Origin: Candidatus Hydrogenedens sp.
GTDB taxonomy: Bacteria; Hydrogenedentota; Hydrogenedentia; Hydrogenedentales; Hydrogenedentaceae
Direction: 5' to 3'
Assembly (NCBI GenBank): GCA_049968235.1
Contig: JBMFRC010000007.1
Coordinates: forward strand, 98,153-162,152
DNA: 64,000 nucleotides
In this document: piece by piece, positions 4,691 through 64,000 of the stretch
How the letters are laid out: each line of letters starts with the position of its first letter
Position numbering within the stretch: position 1 is the stretch's first letter
Program-made: the position numbers and the translations under genes
The notes under the pieces: model-generated
The model's database searches: none
What the model saw: the letters and a program-made list of their open reading frames with translations, nothing else
Told to the model about the DNA's origin: nothing

Positions 4691-4855
4691 AATACTACAT
4701 CTCTCAATTGATGTATTTTGCATAAATAGGCAGAAAACTTAATATAGTGTTTCTGCCTATTTTTATTTATGTAAAAGAAACCTTTTTCTCTTTTTTAAGT
4801 ATAATAAAAGAAAAAATTTTTTAAATAATTTTCACTAACAATTCAGGATTTTACT

Positions 4856-56354: not shown

Positions 56355-57365
56355 ATGAATTTCAAAATCATTTTGTGGGGATTATTATCTATTTTCCCCA
56401 TAATACTTTTTGCCGATGAAAATACTCTCCCTAAAATGAATCAAATACAGGTTATTGGAACACACAACAGTTATCATAAACGCCCTCAATATCTTTACTG
56501 GGCAAAAGAATATGCGAAACAAACAGAAGACTGGGATTATGAACATCTACCTTTAGATATGCAATTAGAAAATGGTGTCCGTAGTTTTGAGTTAGATATT
56601 CACAATACACCTGAAGGTTGGAAAGTAATGCATGTGCCTAAGTTCGACGATACAAGTACATGCCCAAATTTACAGGAATGTCTGAGAGTTATCCGTGAAT
56701 GGTCAGACAAAAACCAAAAACATGTGCCTATTAGTGTCTTACTTGAATGGAAGTCGGAAGGACCTGTTATTGATAAACGCATAACAGTTCCCAAAAAACA
56801 AGACGTTGAACGAATTGAAGAGGACATACTTGCGGTATGGGACAAAACTAGAATCATCACTCCGGATACTATTCGTGGCGATTTCAAAACACTGGAAGAA
56901 GCAATATTAAAAAAAGGTTGGCTTACTCTGGAACAATCCAGAGGAAAAATCATGTTTATCCTCCATAACAGAAGAAAATTAAGGGATTTCTATCTGGAAG
57001 GGCATCCTAATTTAGAGGGTCGATTAATGTTTGTCAATTCATATCCCGGTGAACCTTACTCTGCAACCATAATAATTGATAACCCTTTTCATGAAGAAAT
57101 ACCCGTATGGGTTCAAAAAGGATACTTTATTCGTGTTTTCGGTGCTAACCCCAAATCGCAGTCTCCCGACAAAATTAGATTAAAAGACGATAAAGCATTT
57201 TCATGTGGTGCTCAGGTTATCTCAACAAACAATCCGCCCGGCGAACCTTACCCCCAAACAGGTTACTTTTTAGTATTCCCCGATGGTTCCACAATTCGCT
57301 GGAATCCTATTAATGGTCCCTCAAATATTGATATATCCCCTGAATCAAAAACCTCCCAAAAATGA
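56355..57365 (+). CDS. Secreted PI-PLC X-domain-like phosphodiesterase
   Basis: 336 aa. Signal peptide. VIGTHNSYH and GVRSFELDIH match the catalytic X-domain signature of Ca-dependent phosphatidylinositol-specific phospholipase C-like enzymes. Confidence 0.6.
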   Translation: MNFKIILWGLLSIFPIILFADENTLPKMNQIQVIGTHNSYHKRPQYLYWAKEYAKQTEDWDYEHLPLDMQLENGVRSFELDIHNTPEGWKVMHVPKFDDTSTCPNLQECLRVIREWSDKNQKHVPISVLLEWKSEGPVIDKRITVPKKQDVERIEEDILAVWDKTRIITPDTIRGDFKTLEEAILKKGWLTLEQSRGKIMFILHNRRKLRDFYLEGHPNLEGRLMFVNSYPGEPYSATIIIDNPFHEEIPVWVQKGYFIRVFGANPKSQSPDKIRLKDDKAFSCGAQVISTNNPPGEPYPQTGYFLVFPDGSTIRWNPINGPSNIDISPESKTSQK

Positions 57366-57628
57366 ATTTCAGAACAACTGATTTAAGTCAATTCTATTCG
57401 AAACCTCCAAATAAAGGGAGTTAAAGTATTTTTAAGACAGGTTATACATAAGATTATGAGATAAAATCAGATTAATATTTGAAATGAAGGAAGAAAACAA
57501 TAAGAGGTTTATTTCTTTTCATTTTTTTCTTCACTGCCGTTCTTATTTCATTTATTATAAGGTCTCATTTAATAAAAAAATGTCTTATGTGTTTAAAAAA
57601 TTATTTTTTGAAAAAAATTAAAAAAGAC

Positions 57629-57661
57629 TTGACAAATACTTTTTTTTTTTTTTTGTATAAT
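57629..57661 (+). promoter_or_regulatory. Consensus sigma70-like promoter with a homopolymeric 15-T spacer
   Basis: Perfect -35 TTGACA (57629-57634) and perfect -10 TATAAT (57656-57661), separated by a 21-nt spacer that is mostly T15 (57640-57654). A GAGGAGG RBS precedes the ATG at 57743. Confidence 0.5.
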
Positions 57662-57742
57662 AAATTTAATGATAATTAAGTAGTAAGAAGTAGTATAAGT
57701 GACAATTGAATAATTAAACATCCAAAAGAGGAGGCCAAGGGC

Positions 57743-59284
57743 ATGAAAAAGGTTATATGCTTTACAGTAGTAGTAATCACTTTGTGTTTGGCGGTTTCCG
57801 TTCCGGTTTATAGCGTGGATATTACTTTTCTGAATAAGGTTCGTTCCGAGGAAAAGCAGGCATACGCGGAGATAAGCAATGGACAGGTAAAAAATGGATT
57901 GTGTCGGCTGGCTCGTTTGTTTAGGGATGCACCTCTGGATGATATAAGTTGTATAGAGCCGTTATTAGGTCCTTTTCAGTTATTTTGTTATGAGTTATCA
58001 ACTCATAATGAGTTAATAATGCAGAGTTTGGTAGATAGAAACGTTGTTGTTAATTCTGGACGGGAAGAGCCTGTATTACAACCGAATATGTATCCATCGG
58101 ACCGATTATTAATGGCGGGAGCGTATGCATTAAGTGAACCGATGGACACATTTTCCCACGCACATTTATACCACTATATTCCGCAGTTAATAGGAGATAA
58201 AGAGATCTTGCTGAAAGCAGTAGGAGTAGGATTGGGGCTGGTAATCTTTCCAGAAGGTGGAGAGGCACTGGGGATACCAGGGGATTATTATCGGTCATTA
58301 AGTATTCCTTATATGCGTAAACAAATGAGTGTGGAGATACAGCGGTTATTTGTGGAGGTTTATGTGCTTATGCGTATAGATGAGTTAAGTGGTGCTATAA
58401 AAGAGATGGGGAGTTATGGAAATGAATTGAGTAAGCGGGATGACAAGACCTTGTTGTTGGATAAATTAGAAGAATGGGGAATAACAAGGGAAGAGGTAGT
58501 AAGTATATCACCGGGATTGAATTGTATTTCATTAGGTCTGCCAAGTCTGGATGTAAAAGATATAAATTGGGATAGTTTTTTATTGTGGGCGGATATGCTG
58601 AGGAAAACGAGTGATTCGCGGGTGGGGTATATGCTATTGTTTATTTTACGTTATTCTCCATACTTTGGAGAAGAGGTGGAGAATAAGGTTAGAGGGGTAT
58701 TGGAGGATATATGTAAGGAGGTTGGTTCGACAGGTAGAGTGGAGGGGATATATGCTCGTTGTATATTAAATGACTGGGATGCAAGGTCACATCGCGTAAA
58801 AGACTTATATATGCGGACAAAAGAATTACTTCAGACAGGGGTATTACCAGGGGTATATAGTTTCCGGAGTTTGTATAAAGAGCGAGAACGAGCGATAAAT
58901 CTGGCATATAATTATTTTGTTAAATATTGTTGGTATGAATACGGAGTGGAGATAGGTGATGCAATGAGAAGTAGAGACTGGATGAGTAAAGAGTTATTTA
59001 AAAGGGAACCTTTGTATATGAGTATGCGTCGGATAAGGGATGCAACGAATGTATTGAAGTATAAGAAGAACATGGAAGAATTACTTAATTATTACAAGGA
59101 TATAGCGGAGCATACACCTAATCCAGAATTAAAAGAAGAGATGTTGTCCCTTATCAACTCTCCACTTAAGGAAATAGTTCCGCGATTAAAAAATAGTTCG
59201 TCTCCACCCGTAGGGGATATATTATTAGATTGGGCGAGAGAAAGAACAGTGGGGATGTCGGAGAAAAGAGAAAAAGGAAGATAA
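57743..59284 (+). CDS. Secreted hypothetical protein, first gene of a compositionally distinct island
   Basis: 513 aa. Signal peptide MKKVICFTVVVITLCLAVSVPVYS. GAGGAGG RBS. G/T-rich codon usage (AGG, GGG, GTT, TTG) unlike the rest of the window. Confidence 0.65.
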   Translation: MKKVICFTVVVITLCLAVSVPVYSVDITFLNKVRSEEKQAYAEISNGQVKNGLCRLARLFRDAPLDDISCIEPLLGPFQLFCYELSTHNELIMQSLVDRNVVVNSGREEPVLQPNMYPSDRLLMAGAYALSEPMDTFSHAHLYHYIPQLIGDKEILLKAVGVGLGLVIFPEGGEALGIPGDYYRSLSIPYMRKQMSVEIQRLFVEVYVLMRIDELSGAIKEMGSYGNELSKRDDKTLLLDKLEEWGITREEVVSISPGLNCISLGLPSLDVKDINWDSFLLWADMLRKTSDSRVGYMLLFILRYSPYFGEEVENKVRGVLEDICKEVGSTGRVEGIYARCILNDWDARSHRVKDLYMRTKELLQTGVLPGVYSFRSLYKERERAINLAYNYFVKYCWYEYGVEIGDAMRSRDWMSKELFKREPLYMSMRRIRDATNVLKYKKNMEELLNYYKDIAEHTPNPELKEEMLSLINSPLKEIVPRLKNSSSPPVGDILLDWARERTVGMSEKREKGR

Positions 59285-59321
59285 ATATGACTCTGTATAA
59301 TAAATTGAGGAGGAATAAAAT

Positions 59322-61252
59322 ATGAATAAGGAGACAAAGAGACAAAAAAACAAAGAAAATGTAAAGTATGGGTCAAAATATTAATAGTAACAATGGGAAT
59401 AGGAATAATAATCGGTATGAGTGGATGTCCTTCAGAAGTGTGTAAGTGCGGAAATAATGAGCGAACAATAACAACCGAGGTAATTCCACCCGGAGCAGGT
59501 AGCATCTCACTGGAACCGGAGAAAGAATCTTATACTCGGGGCGAGAATGTATTAGTTACATTTACTCCGGAAACTAATTACAAGATGTATATATGGATTG
59601 ATACAAGCAGTTTATTTCATCTTTGTCCATCAAATACAATACTTATGAGGGTAACAGATAATATTCAACTGACGGCGTTACCGTGGTGGACAAAGAGGAA
59701 AGTGCATGTGTTTTGGGATACGTCTTTAGTGGATGTAGAAGTTCCAGAAGATGCAGTAGTACAGAGTCCGGGTTCTTTCGAAGTAGAACGGGAGGTGGAT
59801 AGCCTGGCAACCTTTTCGGGACAGATAAAAGAAAATTTACCACCTTTACCACCTGGTCAAGTTCGGAAGATGCTATGGGATTTGGTATCAATACCAACAC
59901 ATGTAGGACAGAGATGGGGTGAAACGAGTTGTTCGATAGTAGTAGAGGGTCCGTCCTCACCGACAGCGGAGCCAATATACCTGTATGCAACAGCCCAAGC
60001 ATGGGATGAGAGCAGTCCTGTATATAGTATGAATATCTTTCCTGCTTCAATAGTAAATGGGGAAAATTTTGAAGGAAGACTATACTGTAACGGTTGCGGA
60101 TGTGAGTGGTGTACTTGTTTGTCAGCGTTCCCATATGAGTGGACGAATAGTGGGGTTTGTAGGAAGTTTATGTTTTCAATGCGTCCGTCTCCGTATGAAG
60201 CATTTGTGTTCTGGCTGGGAATGCAGGGCTATAATCTATCGCAAAATGCGGAATATACATTTGAGAGTCCAGGTGGAGGTAGTATGAACTTTTATGGACT
60301 TTATGCCCCTCGAATACATCTGTCGCCGTCTGTCGAGGGTCAGGGTGTGATTCACATAGAGTCAGGAGGGTATACAGAGCGATGGGGATATAACCCAATG
60401 CCATTTTGTATTGGAGGAGAATGTTCAGGATGGGTACAGGAGGATATATCTAATTGTGTCAATATCTTAGGCAATAAAGTGGTATTAAAAGCAGAACCGT
60501 GTAACACTTCATGGATATTTGACCATTGGGAATATTTGGACGCGGGTGAAGGTGAGGGAAATTCTGGTAGTTGGGTAGAAATACCGGATGTTGGAGATAG
60601 ACTGAATACCTATATGAACTGGTGGGGTTATCTGGATGAAACTCCGGGGCATCTCCATGTCCCCTGGGGAGAAACCAATTTCCAGGTCAAAGCCGTTTTT
60701 AGAAGATATGGTGTGTTTACGGTACAACCAAATGACCCTCAAATTTGGTGGCATACAATTATATACAATTTTTTTGAGGAAAAGGGTTATAATTCAATAA
60801 TGGTTTTTAGTTTTAATAATTTTTTTGCTATTAGTAATTTTAAAGCTAGTTTACATAATTTGCCTAAATACGATGTTTTTCTATATAGTGGGCACCATGC
60901 TGGTGGTTGTTTGGGGGATGTATCATGGCAAGATATTCTGATTAATAATCACGGGCATGGTTATTTGCTTGTATATCTTTTAGCATGTAATACGGCAAAT
61001 ATAATAATTTATAATGGTCAAGAGATTGATTTAGGGGAAAGATGGAAAGGTGCTTTTAATGCTTCATGTTTTATAGGATTTGAACAAATACTCTCCGAAC
61101 TAGCGGCACAATCTTTCGACACAATGTTTTACCATTTCTTAAGATATTATTTTCCACATTCACCTCGAATGGCTGCTGAATTAGCATCATGGACGACAAC
61201 AGTAGATGTGCGTATTTTAGGAGATGTCTATTTGCCGTTTTGTGAAGGTTGA
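59322..61252 (+). CDS. Cys-rich lipoprotein with C-terminal caspase-like (clan CD) His/Cys dyad motif; start region carries an apparent -1 frameshift in an A7 run
   Basis: The ATG at 59322 has a perfect GAGGAGG SD 9 nt upstream but stops after 20 codons. The main ORF (59393..61252) is in frame -1. Adding one A to a7 (59344-59350) gives MNKETKRQKKQRKCKVWVKILIVTMGIGIIIGMSGC, a textbook lipoprotein signal. The C-terminus holds DVFLYSGHHAGG...(31 aa)...YLLVYLLACNTAN. Confidence 0.6.
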
Positions 61253-61293
61253 TTTATAATGAAGATAAAGCAATCGATACAGGATTGAAAGTT

Positions 61294-62088
61294 ATGTTGA
61301 GATTGGGTGTTATCAGTTTATTTTTAATGGGCTTGGGTTGTGTCAATGAAACTTATAAGTATAACTCTCCGTATGTGATATGGGAATGGAGATTGGGTCC
61401 GCTAAAAGAATTTAAGGAAGGAATCTTTCAAAAGGAGATTGTTGAATTTGCAAATCTTTTTATAAAAGAGTTTTCGTTTGAAAAAGAGGATATATCGCCA
61501 TTTTTATATAGTAAATACTTTGCAGATGGGGATATATATATAACTTTAATATATGTCAGGGATGAGCAAAAAAGAAAACAATGGCAATCTTTACTGGTTG
61601 AATATAGAAAAATAGATATACCTATGTATACGGATTACATAGTTACAATTTCTTTGTTAACCAATCGAGTGGTTCAATTTTATAACGGGGGGGTTCTTAC
61701 TTCATATAGTGGAAACTTGCATTTTTCGAACTCATACATGGACCGTAGATTGAAGATGGACAACGAAAATAATGAGGGTACAATGTGTGTTGAGAAGATA
61801 TCGGAATATATAGGTATCCCTGAAGAAAAAAGAACAAGTGTAGAAATATTTAAAAGTCCATTAGGATTCTTGTATTTTAAGAGTAAGGAGAAAAGTTTTA
61901 ATATTTTGTCAGGACTTGACAGGTATAAAAGTATAAACGATTTTTATTTCGGTATAGTTAGGACCTTATATTTTGACCTGGGTTCCCTTGATAATGAAGA
62001 CAGACCTATATCGGCACCTCTTTTTGAGGGCGTATTAATTTGTATAAAAGATAAGTGGTATCCACTTTTTTATATTTATAATTTTTAA
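61294..62088 (+). CDS. Hypothetical lipoprotein/exported protein
   Basis: The ORF from TTG 61249 overlaps the stop of the previous gene by 4 nt. The likely start is ATG 61294, giving MLRLGVISLFLMGLGC (signal plus Cys). No known domain. Confidence 0.5.
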   Translation: MLRLGVISLFLMGLGCVNETYKYNSPYVIWEWRLGPLKEFKEGIFQKEIVEFANLFIKEFSFEKEDISPFLYSKYFADGDIYITLIYVRDEQKRKQWQSLLVEYRKIDIPMYTDYIVTISLLTNRVVQFYNGGVLTSYSGNLHFSNSYMDRRLKMDNENNEGTMCVEKISEYIGIPEEKRTSVEIFKSPLGFLYFKSKEKSFNILSGLDRYKSINDFYFGIVRTLYFDLGSLDNEDRPISAPLFEGVLICIKDKWYPLFYIYNF

Positions 62089-62140
62089 GTGTGCATGCTT
62101 TTAAGAAGATTGCTAATTATAATATGAAAAAAGGAAGTCA

Positions 62141-62986
62141 ATGATGCTTCTGAATCTTGTTAATTTATTATTAATATTGAGTGGAAATATGAGTGAGGAG
62201 CAAACCTACAAAGAAATAGCACGAAATTTTATCAATGATACAATTCATTATGAGGTAAAAGATATAACAATCGAAAAAACTCCTCTACGTTCTAATTTCC
62301 TTTTATATGACGAGCCAGTAATTACATTAAAAGCAGATAATGCTTACTTATTAAGTATTGGTGAAAAGAGCAAGATCGTATTAAGTTGTATCGGACTCTC
62401 AATTGAAGGAATAGAAGGAGAAAAAATTGATACTGTAAATGATGCTTTTAAGCAACTGTATGAGGTTTTCAAGTATTATAATCTTCCCTTGCAGATTGAA
62501 GAATGTTCTGTAAAGGAGTCTATCGATAAATATATTTTTCAAAAAGAACTTTTATACAACAATATTATATGTAGAAATTCAGGGATACGTGTAGAGATAC
62601 TAAAGAAAAACGGAACTACAATGTCTATACTTTACAAACCTTGTATTGAGCCTTTGAATAAGTTTCCTCCTAAGATTAATGAAAAAGAATTGGAGGAAGT
62701 TCTAAATAATTGGTTAAAAGAACAAACATATTTCCAAAAATATCCAGCAAAGATTTTAGGGGAAGAAAAACTCCGCATTGTAATTGCTCCTAAACTTAAC
62801 CAATACGACCCTAACTCATATAAGAATGTATTGATACAGAGAAGTGCTATAGAAAGGTATTATGCATACGAAATGTCTATCGTATGGGAGGAAAAAGGAA
62901 AAAAATGGTTTGGATGGGTTTGGATTGATGGGAATAGTAAAAAAGTAATAGGGGGATTTCCTAATTATAGTCAAGAAAAGGAATGA
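62141..62986 (+). CDS. Hypothetical exported protein
   Basis: 281 aa. AAGGAAG RBS. N-terminal hydrophobic MMLLNLVNLLLILSG. Confidence 0.55.
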   Translation: MMLLNLVNLLLILSGNMSEEQTYKEIARNFINDTIHYEVKDITIEKTPLRSNFLLYDEPVITLKADNAYLLSIGEKSKIVLSCIGLSIEGIEGEKIDTVNDAFKQLYEVFKYYNLPLQIEECSVKESIDKYIFQKELLYNNIICRNSGIRVEILKKNGTTMSILYKPCIEPLNKFPPKINEKELEEVLNNWLKEQTYFQKYPAKILGEEKLRIVIAPKLNQYDPNSYKNVLIQRSAIERYYAYEMSIVWEEKGKKWFGWVWIDGNSKKVIGGFPNYSQEKE

Positions 62987-63792
62987 AAATGGACAGGATA
63001 AAGCACTATAAACTATTTTTATTATTTCTGCTTATATTATCTTTGATTGGCGTATACTTTGTCGTGCGAAAGAATATTTCTGAGAACATAAAACTGAGAG
63101 GATACATTAGAGTTAAGGATACAGATATAGAAAATATGGGTGTAAGAAAAGAAACCTTTAAAGAGATAGTTACTTTGGTCAGAGAAATCACAAACACCAA
63201 AGATTTTTACAAGATGATATCTATGCCTATGAAATTAGACCTTAATGAACCCTCAGAAAGAACATATCATGCAAAAGGAAAAGACTGTATTAAGATTTAT
63301 TTTTTTATTCTTCCACCAAAAAACAACGGATATTATTCCCTATCTGAGGAACCATATATAGAAATACTCTTTGATAAAGATATCGGAAAAATTATTTACA
63401 TGTGTGATTATACAGATTTTTATCGAAAAATAAGTTTATCTGAAGATTCTAATCGAGAAGATGAAAATGGCTACAAGACCCTGATAAATCTTTTACTAAA
63501 CTACTATGGATATAGTCAAGAGCCTCTTGAATACTTTCAAGTAGAAACTCGAAAAATGGCAGGAAAGGTTAAAATTACTATGAAGTTGAGAGAAAATAGT
63601 GAGGAAGGTAATAATGCAAAATTAACGAAGACATTTTATATTATTTTTAATTCAAGATTTAATAAAATACAATATTTTGATGTATTTACATTAAATTATG
63701 GGAACACAGTTTTATGGTCTTACAGTCCAGATGCAAAATACTATGAAAATAGTCCCCTCATGTTACAAATAAAATCTCTTATAGACAATTAG
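62983..63792 (+). CDS. Hypothetical membrane-anchored protein
   Basis: 269 aa. Overlaps the previous stop by 4 nt (ATGA coupling). N-terminal TM LFLLFLLILSLIGVYFVV. Confidence 0.55.
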   Translation: MKMDRIKHYKLFLLFLLILSLIGVYFVVRKNISENIKLRGYIRVKDTDIENMGVRKETFKEIVTLVREITNTKDFYKMISMPMKLDLNEPSERTYHAKGKDCIKIYFFILPPKNNGYYSLSEEPYIEILFDKDIGKIIYMCDYTDFYRKISLSEDSNREDENGYKTLINLLLNYYGYSQEPLEYFQVETRKMAGKVKITMKLRENSEEGNNAKLTKTFYIIFNSRFNKIQYFDVFTLNYGNTVLWSYSPDAKYYENSPLMLQIKSLIDN

Positions 63793-63926
63793 CCCTAATT
63801 TTTATTATAAAGAAATATTCGTTGATAATGTAAAATTACAAGTGGAATTAAATAACACGATACAGAGGTTTTACCACCGGGAATACTTCTATGTAAGCAA
63901 ATAAGAAAAAGAGACGAGTAGTTGTA

Positions 63927-64000
63927 TGAAAGTGCCGAATGTTGGAGATAGACTGAATACCTATATGAACTGGTGAGGTTATCTGGATGAAACTCCGGGG
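63927..64000 (+). repeat. Partial near-identical copy of an internal segment of gene 59322..61252 (truncated by window end)
   Basis: 63935-64000 matches 60586-60651 (ccgGatgttggagatagactgaatacctatatgaactggtgGggttatctggatgaaactccgggg) with 2 mismatches. One mismatch converts TGG (Trp) to TGA within an ORF starting at ATG 63927 (MKVPNVGDRLNTYMNW*). Confidence 0.5.

Follow-up and report, generated by a model that had tools for sequence, protein, structure and literature searches.

Clan CD cysteine peptidases, which comprise e.g., the caspases, legumain, gingipain, separase and the CHAT proteases, share a central six-stranded sheet and carry the catalytic His, usually in a G-H-G motif, right after strand 3 and the catalytic Cys, usually in an A/S-C motif, right after strand 4, with the two side chains ~4 Å apart in space. 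Several of these enzymes, namely caspases, gingipains, separase and CHAT, have key roles in cell death, virulence and bacterial immunity. Polymorphic toxin loci, including CDI (contact-dependent inhibition), Rhs, MafB and SitA, are built from a scaffold and a variable C-terminal domain, and they are accompanied by orphan modules and by partner genes which diverge together with the toxin. A caspase-fold His/Cys domain named “Tox-Caspase” was predicted as the C-terminal-most module of Sec-exported polymorphic toxins in the part of the survey considered here (Zhang et al., 2012; PMC3482391), and in the same part such proteins are described as being diversified by recombination with standalone cassettes and encoded beside putative immunity genes (PMC3482391). 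In the sitBAI loci, a lipoprotein polymorphic toxin is encoded between a signal-peptide gene on its upstream side and an immunity gene on its downstream side (PMC5562445). Here, we describe a locus on a stretch of 64,000 nucleotides from Candidatus Hydrogenedens sp. (contig JBMFRC010000007.1, positions 98,153 to 162,152 of the forward strand; in the following “the window”), whose main gene encodes a protein of the lipoprotein type ending in a putative clan CD protease domain.

This C-terminal domain of ~175 amino acids (aa) is a compact clan CD family, which is unclassified in current domain libraries. Within the main gene, the following features were assigned:

59393..61252, plus strand: main gene as assembled (619 aa), with a lipobox, an InlB B-repeat, a Cys-rich beta region, a second B-repeat-like region and the clan CD domain
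59471..59677, plus strand: InlB B-repeat (Pfam Flg_new_2), aa 27-95 (E 4.7e-05; score 23.7 bits, cut-off 23.6)
60083-60118, plus strand: Cys cluster YCNGCGCEWCTC, aa 231-242, assigned from the sequence and close homologues (CNGCGCEWCTC is aa 232-242, 60086..60118)
60567..60703, plus strand: homology block which closes the second B-repeat (..VGDRLNTYMNWWGYLDETPGHLHVPWGETNFQVKA) and recurs at the 5' end of the orphan further downstream
60698..61249, plus strand: clan CD (caspase/gingipain/CHAT-fold) domain, aa 436-619, C-terminal and compact, with no match to a Pfam or NCBIfam model
60872..61000, plus strand: stretch with beta3 and Gly500-His501, a loop and helix, and beta4 with Ala531-Cys532, the putative catalytic dyad

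The last of these stretches had already been flagged in an earlier inspection of the letters and their translations (the sequence-only reading), which proposed that a hydrophobic strand ending in Gly-His and, 31 residues on, a second strand ending in Ala-Cys reproduce the geometry of clan CD peptidases. Re-derivation of the coordinates placed both segments at 60872-61000 on the plus strand inside the 619-aa open reading frame (ORF) 59393-61252, with DVFLYSGHHAGG covering aa 494-505 (nt 60872-60907) and YLLVYLLACNTAN covering aa 524-536 (nt 60962-61000). His501 is encoded by CAC at 60893-60895, His502 by CAT at 60896-60898 and Cys532 by TGT at 60986-60988, and the distance from His501 to Cys532 is indeed 31 residues. 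A regular expression for this arrangement (hydrophobic strand-GH, 20-60 aa, hydrophobic strand-[AGS]C) matched 12 of 20,000 shuffles of the main protein and none of the other open frames of at least 100 aa in the window. The expression was composed post hoc, after the motif had been seen, and conservation and fold are therefore the stronger argument for the motif than the shuffle count.

At the sequence level, a profile of the family compared with all PDB sequences found the SAVED-CHAT protease 8tl0_A at E 3.6e-6, with an alignment across the catalytic dyad that pairs vFvFnGHG with ilhFiGHG and VyLnaC with VvLNAC and extends through the next strand and helix. The dyad of SAVED-CHAT consists of H375 and C422, which lie 3.8 Å apart, and the double mutant is inactive (10.1101/2023.06.23.546230). 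The residues of 8TL0 aligned to the dyad of the family have the chain indices 355 and 402 and consequently the same spacing of 47 as H375/C422; these indices differ from the published residue numbers by 20, and the equivalence of the dyads rests on motif and spacing.

Structure prediction with AlphaFold2 (AF2) and a 19-sequence alignment (A4) gave a model of the domain with a pLDDT (predicted local distance difference test) of 89.4 and a pTM (predicted template modelling score) of 0.87. A model from a two-sequence alignment (A2) had a pLDDT of 38, was uninformative and was discarded. In the model from the larger alignment, strands (b) and helices (a) follow each other in the order b1-a-b2-a-b3-(His)-a-b4-(Cys)-hairpin-a-b5-a-a-b6, forming an alpha/beta fold with a six-stranded sheet as in clan CD. 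Strands are located at domain residues 60-64 and 89-95, and His66 of the domain (His501) stands right after strand 3 and Cys97 (Cys532) right after strand 4, in the order typical of the clan and with G-H-H as the deviation; both positions are conserved across the homologues. Structural comparison of the model ranked clan CD structures above all others, with the following scores:

Gingipain RgpB, 14.2 (167 residues aligned)
SAVED-CHAT, 14.1
Human separase, 14.0, and yeast separase, 13.8
Kgp, 13.7
Caspase-9, CED-3, MALT1, legumain, metacaspases and the GPI (glycosylphosphatidylinositol) transamidase, 12.0-10.8
First unrelated folds (flavodoxin-like), 8.0 or less

The ranking by Foldseek agrees with this order (8tl0 at E 3e-6, separase at 8.6e-6). 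The sequence-only reading had named a fold unrelated to clan CD as the outcome that would speak against it; what was obtained for the C-terminal region is a fold of the caspase/CHAT/C25 type, so that the clan CD assignment stands. In fact, the proposal is borne out by three lines at once, i.e., the family-wide conservation of the dyad positions, the profile match to 8TL0 and the predicted fold. As read from the fold match and the 8TL0 alignment, His501 and Cys532 would lie next to each other. Judging from alignments and model, we consider the assignment of fold and dyad very probably correct, and the domain is probably catalytically active in at least the intact alleles.

One objection would be that the motif arose by chance in an alpha/beta domain of another kind. 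In its favour, the window sequence by itself has no match among the Pfam clan CD families and the two-sequence prediction with its pLDDT of 38 was uninformative, but the 8TL0 profile match, the AF2 model, the structural comparison and the conservation of the dyad effectively refute this option, to which we assign next to no probability.

The extent of the family was determined with a hidden Markov model (HMM) of the C-terminal domain, which was built from alignment A2 (the window sequence and its homologue P0002). Among 1.84 billion cluster representatives, it retrieved 18 proteins at E<=1e-3; the named ones are all “hypothetical” and those with a taxon all belong to Hydrogenedentota. In an alignment of 17 sequences with 21-28% identity to the query, Phe-x-x-x-Gly before the His, the Tyr opening strand 4 and the Cys are invariant, and the His is kept in 16 of the 17. 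Across all copies collected (again 21-28% identical to the query), the preceding Gly is found in 26/26, the His in 25/26 (one Glu) and the Cys in 31/31. As far as can be read from these alignments, the residues picked out by the sequence-only reading, His501 and Cys532, are the signature of the family. One orphan-type ORF, P0004, reads QGEAY with Glu in place of the catalytic His and a retained Cys, and may represent a decayed cassette or a pseudo-protease.

Existing models hardly register the family. The best sub-threshold Pfam hits of individual members fall into clan CD families only, namely Peptidase_C25 (1.9e-4), CHAT (0.023), C50 (0.14) and C13 (0.24). For CHAT (PF12770), the gathering threshold of 24 bits is not reached by any member, the best showing E-values of 0.023 and 0.12 at ~12 bits. 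For Peptidase_C25 (PF01364, threshold 23 bits), the window domain gives no match and P0008 gives 21.3 bits; only an orphan paralogue on contig L005 (4703-5404) passes, with 23.7 vs 23 bits over profile positions 219-344 of 374. Word-index homologue searches with the domain alignments returned no protein for A2 and two proteins only for A4. The family is best described as having CHAT as its nearest relative by sequence, and gingipain, CHAT and separase by structure.

Apart from the clan CD domain, the main protein has a stalk of InlB B-repeat and Cys-rich beta domains. The InlB B-repeat is the sole domain recognised by Pfam, barely over threshold, and the full-length protein compared with PDB sequences gave noise only, such as an alcohol-dehydrogenase-like match (E 0.62) in the Cys-rich region. 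The protein was rightly called Cys-rich before, as it contains 19 Cys among 619 aa. Besides YCNGCGCEWCTC, a second Cys-rich motif, CPSEVCKC, occupies aa 12-19 (59426-59449), and in both motifs every Cys is invariant across four close homologues, including all five in CNGCGCEWCTC. One possibility is that these motifs provide the lipoprotein stalk with a disulfide knot or a metal site. Very few close homologues of the full main protein were found: P0001 is 99% identical, stems from a Candidatus Hydrogenedens metagenome-assembled genome (MAG) and is annotated as “InlB B-repeat-containing protein”; P0002 shares 47% identity; and P0003, from a single-cell genome, is a split copy whose C-terminal half is the next ORF (L003:9046-9894). 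In the longer relatives, the clan CD domain is always found C-terminal to extracellular modules, i.e., InlB B-repeats, Calx-beta, Big_5 or Big_12.

This architecture bears on the option that the domain is an autoprocessing (releasing) peptidase, which like the cysteine protease domain (CPD) of MARTX or TcdB would shed the stalk or itself from the lipid anchor. Its compact clan CD fold would suit such a role, the MARTX CPD is among the Foldseek matches (3gcd_A, E 1.6e-2), and caspase-like domains are, in the portion of the survey cited, common as releasing peptidases in large surface proteins and toxins (PMC3482391). According to the same portion, releasing peptidases precede a separate toxin domain (PMC3482391), whereas the clan CD domain is the C-terminal-most one here and no other effector domain is present. 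Moreover, the best structural matches are gingipain, CHAT and separase and not C80, and self-cleavage needs no dedicated co-diversifying partner of the kind described below. Taken together, autoprocessing appears improbable.

The sequence-only reading further described the protein as lipid-anchored. The lipobox IIGMSGC with Cys12 (59426-59428) lies in the main ORF, and the protein family is to be read as lipoprotein-type because the homologues P0003 (MNNWEKSIKQRLLMFCLVVIGIGIVISMSGC) and P0006 (..LVLVLGSLAGC) carry intact single-frame lipoprotein signal peptides with lipoboxes; in the window, the claim is not supported as it was put, as the signal peptide is split (59309-59395) by a frameshift at a run of seven A. 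As assembled, the main ORF begins with MGIGIIIGMSGC and thus has the lipobox and a partial h-region in frame and lacks the charged n-region. The remainder is found in a second frame:

59322..59384, plus strand: short upstream ORF of 20 codons, MNKETKRQKNKENVKYGSKY*, with an ATG 71 bases upstream of the main ORF and the ribosome-binding site GAGGAGG

The A7 run at 59344-59350 lies within this short ORF, reads A_AAA_AAC in its frame and marks an offset of one base between this frame and the main one. One extra A or a -1 slip on A_AAA_AAC would yield MNKETKRQKKQRKCKVWVKILIVTMGIGIIIGMSGC, a complete lipoprotein signal peptide fused to the main ORF. This A7 recurs in L005, a contig of an independent MAG, and the split could go back to phase variation, to -1 recoding, to slippage during transcription or to a shared error in the homopolymer. 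Related breaks were seen elsewhere, with an analogous one at a GGGG run in the signal-peptide h-region of L001/L002 (1899-1963) and a G6 run on L003 (9040-9060) that splits the gene mid-way into P0003 and the next ORF. Three lineages thus show three different homopolymer breaks in the same gene, which is odd for random error.

The genomic surroundings of the main gene comprise the following features:

57743..59284, plus strand: exported 513-aa protein with a type I signal peptide, conserved beside the lipoprotein gene in the two closest lineages
61249..62088, plus strand: 279-aa ORF between main gene and partner, probable start at MLRLGVISLFLMGLGC (61294), with an exported or lipoprotein-like look
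62141..62986, plus strand: exported partner, 281 aa, alignment family A5/A7, defined by phmmer and hmmsearch homologues
62983..63792, plus strand: 269-aa protein with an N-terminal membrane anchor, weakly related (E ~1e-6) to a 292-aa protein in the arrays on L009 and L010
63926..64000, plus strand: start of an orphan module (half B-repeat and divergent clan CD domain), first 25 codons, truncated by the window end

Comparison with the two nearest orthologues revealed that the parts of this locus diverge at different rates. The N-terminal 430 aa of the main protein are 57-60% identical, vs 29-31% for the clan CD domain; in the same comparison, the upstream 513-aa protein is 51-64% identical and the partner only 24-26%. 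By these identities, the clan CD domain has diverged at double the rate of the remaining protein. The boundary is sharp and is demarcated by a conserved pre-domain block (..YMNWWGY..HVPWG.T.FQVKA), so that a conserved scaffold is followed by a variable C-terminal domain as in polymorphic toxins.

Standalone cassettes sharing a homology block with the main gene, another trait of polymorphic toxins, were found as well. On L005, a direct repeat of 137 nt with 91% identity links positions 1344-1480 and 4695-4831 (offset to the window +59223), and alignment A6 confirms the homology block in the window. The DNA identity between main gene and orphan ends at ..FQVKA, the last residue before the clan CD domain. 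The intact orphan (L005:4703-5407, 234 aa) is promoter-less and begins in the middle of a B-repeat without signal peptide or N-terminal domains. It shares 92% identity with the main protein across the 37 aa leading up to the domain boundary and ~31-34% beyond it, and is followed by a 236-aa membrane-anchored protein which is distantly related to the partner family. On L009 (8.5 kb) and L010, short orphan-type clan CD modules alternate with partner-family genes, and L009 alone contains four partners alongside four copies or fragments of the clan CD module. The window locus also has relatives of two other accessory families found there. In addition, P0023 on L008 (1-737, 3114-4148), a distant relative, lies ~4 kb from an RHS/YD-shell-AHH nuclease/Imm11 pair and a DDE transposase, i.e., in a known polymorphic-toxin neighbourhood.

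A homologue of the partner, with ~250-330 aa and a signal peptide, was found downstream of the clan CD gene in every locus examined (L001, L003, L004, L005, L006 with two copies, L007, L008, L009 with four copies, and L010), and the linkage holds even for relatives whose clan CD domain is only ~22% identical. A partner-family or partner-like gene follows every module and diverges in step with it. Searches of Pfam, NCBIfam and PDB gave no match above threshold for the partner. The C-terminal motif of the family, ..LVIAP..N...(12-20 aa)..YY.WE.....(G)..vWID....evIG, resembles PepSY protease-propeptide domains; the PepSY (PF03413) threshold of 24 bits is not reached by the partners, the window partner has no PepSY match and the partner profile has no PDB match. 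The partners are possibly PepSY-like, which we regard as a lead and not as a result.

The upstream 513-aa protein is 51% identical to L003:6422-7951 and 52% and 64% identical to two pieces on L001, and no homologue was found upstream of P0006 on L004. For the ORF at 61249-62088, neither relatives outside this lineage nor a family match were detected; the idea that it is a hidden member of the partner family was rejected at an hhalign probability of 0.9%. The 269-aa protein at 62983-63792 has no family match and, from its weak relative in the arrays, may represent a third component that is conserved. Neither the protease nor the partner nor the neighbours matched anything in NCBIfam or PADLOC, and no tie to a known defence system was found. 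The genes of the locus share one direction and are closely spaced, so that stops and starts overlap, and convincing terminators are lacking; in 57300-64000, scans for promoters and terminators did not exceed the shuffled controls. As for the island named in the sequence-only reading, the GC content is 0.30-0.40 vs ~0.37 in the window, and a GC-skew flip simply tracks gene orientation. Just upstream of the locus, at 56355-57365, the window encodes a secreted Ca2+-dependent phosphatidylinositol-specific phospholipase C (PI-PLC-C1, E 3.6e-79), which is unusual in an environmental bacterium.

With regard to function, we propose that His501 and Cys532 would form the catalytic dyad of a ~175-aa clan CD peptidase, carried as the C-terminal module of an exported lipobox protein and presented by a stalk of InlB B-repeat and Cys-rich beta domains. 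Anchored at the envelope, this protease could be an extracytoplasmic effector which attacks other cells or foreign proteins, while its cognate exported partner, an inhibitor or immunity protein in this view, could bind and neutralise it within the producer. The protease modules might be swapped through recombination at the homology block. We lean slightly towards this explanation as a whole, i.e., an envelope protease effector with a cognate inhibitor and modules exchanged by recombination, for which we infer catalysis, the inhibitor role of the partner, the target, the delivery route and the actual exchange of cassettes from what is observed, namely the motif and its conservation, the fold, the gene linkage, the orphan with its homology block and the arrays. 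That the locus is a polymorphic module-partner system is, taken by itself, rather likely, while the role of the partner as an inhibitor or immunity protein is more tentative and falls somewhat short of an even chance. It is the polymorphic-toxin anatomy, consisting of a scaffold, a fast-evolving C-terminal domain, orphans with a homology block and co-diverging partners, which favours the effector/inhibitor model.

The sequence-only reading had suggested another role, namely that of a housekeeping maturation protease at the envelope with the upstream 513-aa and downstream ~280-aa proteins as substrates. This main rival shares the clan CD fold and dyad and accounts for the tight, co-directional packing of the genes and for a partner which is always adjacent. 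Moreover, clostripain-type clan CD enzymes have been implicated in the processing of surface proteins, as stated in the part of the survey used here (PMC3482391). However, a maturation protease explains the adjacency and not the co-diversification of domain and partner, the orphans with a homology block or the alternating arrays, and no cleavage motif was identified. The effector model is therefore better suited than a processing role, since a domain and partner which diverge twice as fast, orphans and arrays are unexpected for a housekeeping pair, and we regard the maturation protease as unlikely.

A last set of options, in which the domain is not mainly a protease, concerns a variable surface tip under antigenic or phase variation with silent cassettes in the manner of pilE/pilS, or a clan CD transpeptidase of the PorU, GPI8 or legumain-ligase type which attaches the partner. 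For both, it is relevant that the Gly-His and the Cys are near-perfectly kept across divergent copies including the orphans, as such conservation suggests that selection has acted on catalysis and not just on shape. Antigenic variation by itself would also leave a cognate partner after every module unexplained, and no sorting-signal-like tail was seen on the partners. We judge this group of explanations to be improbable.

Several observations weigh against the effector/inhibitor model that we prefer and against its enzymatic basis. Concerning the domain, His501 is followed by His502 (G-H-H) where clan CD typically has Gly (G-H-G), the position after the catalytic His is Gly in only 15 of 26 family copies, and the C-terminal 184 aa of the window protein alone match no Pfam clan CD family even at E<=10. 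Concerning expression, the window gene as assembled is without a full signal peptide and may be off, phase-variable or decaying, and two other lineages are also frameshifted in this gene. The orphan, intact in the 99%-identical MAG, has a TGG-to-TGA stop at codon 17 in the window, and no orphans were found in L001, L003 and L004. Concerning the partner, no inhibitor fold is recognisable, with a weak PepSY match in 2/12 members only (best E 0.022, 15.5 bits); the ~300-aa partners with signal peptides are unlike typical small immunity proteins; and the window partner is not directly adjacent, as the ORF 61249-62088 intervenes. Finally, no delivery machinery was found and PADLOC was negative.

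The locus adds a very small and very rare clan CD family from an uncultured phylum, unseen by current domain libraries, to a clan of broad biological relevance. Its deployment is unusual as well: the protease sits as an exchangeable tip on an exported lipoprotein, and every copy has an exported partner whose family is equally unannotated. Should the partner be a specific inhibitor, the locus and its relatives would offer a natural library of orthogonal protease-inhibitor couples and would further provide an example of an envelope protease-based polymorphic effector, a class which has so far mostly been predicted by comparative genomics. If, instead, the domain is a maturation protease only, the result is a routine gain in annotation, from “InlB B-repeat protein” to “clan CD peptidase lipoprotein.” Going furthest, one may speculate about an undescribed interbacterial or anti-invader conflict system of Hydrogenedentota, in which a lipoprotein would present a swappable protease “warhead” in the cell envelope, each with its own ~300-aa exported inhibitor from a new and possibly PepSY-like inhibitor/immunity family; cassettes would be exchanged via the 137-nt block, and homopolymers in the signal-peptide region would gate expression through phase variation or -1 recoding at A_AAA_AAC. 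At present, we regard this as rather unlikely. The finding was previously unannotated and the cassette organisation unexpected, yet both are within known concepts, in particular the polymorphic-toxin theme.

In comparison with textbook clan CD peptidases, the domain is only ~175 aa long, has G-H-H for G-H-G and stands outside every existing family model. The CHAT proteases (PF12770; SAVED-CHAT 8TL0 and Craspase Csx29/TPR-CHAT) are described by a profile of 289 positions, show a His-Cys spacing of 47 (8TL0) instead of 31 and act in cytoplasmic signalling and defence, whereas the domain described here is predicted to be extracytoplasmic on a lipoprotein/surface-repeat stalk. Gingipains (MEROPS C25; RgpB 4IEF, Kgp 4RBM) have a catalytic domain of twice the size, and their prodomain, Ig-like domain and type IX secretion system (T9SS) C-terminal domain were not detected in the main protein; conversely, the lipobox anchor, the polymorphic cassettes and the partner gene of the window locus are not features of gingipains. 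Separase (MEROPS C50) is eukaryotic, giant and cytoplasmic or nuclear, and shows no significant sequence match to the domain.

Closer in organisation are the Tox-Caspase proteins, whose description the architecture in the window fits. The likeness is one of description only. Hydrogenedentota are not among the phyla quoted in the part of the survey considered (PMC3482391). The exported partners of ~300 aa found here match no Pfam model. For Tox-Caspase and for the window locus alike, toxicity is a prediction.

The SitA/SitB/SitI proteins of myxobacteria share the gene order and logic of the locus, with a gene for a protein with a type I signal peptide, a lipoprotein with a conserved N-part and a variable C-terminal effector domain, and a cognate partner (PMC5562445). 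This is an analogy for which no sequence relation was seen, and SitA proteins are nucleases acting in the cytoplasm with a cytoplasmic SitI, in contrast to the predicted protease and the exported partners of the window locus. To our knowledge, no exchange machinery of the TraA/B type is known for the phylum Hydrogenedentota. The CDI (cdiA-CT/cdiI) and Rhs orphan arrays resemble the locus in that a conserved stretch marks off the variable C-terminal domain that comes after it, orphans lacking the 5' part keep a short homology block, and effector and partner genes alternate. In those systems, however, the scaffold is a TpsA filament or an Rhs shell, whereas here it consists of a lipoprotein with B-repeats; the demarcation motif differs as well, and the partners of the Hydrogenedentota locus are large and exported.

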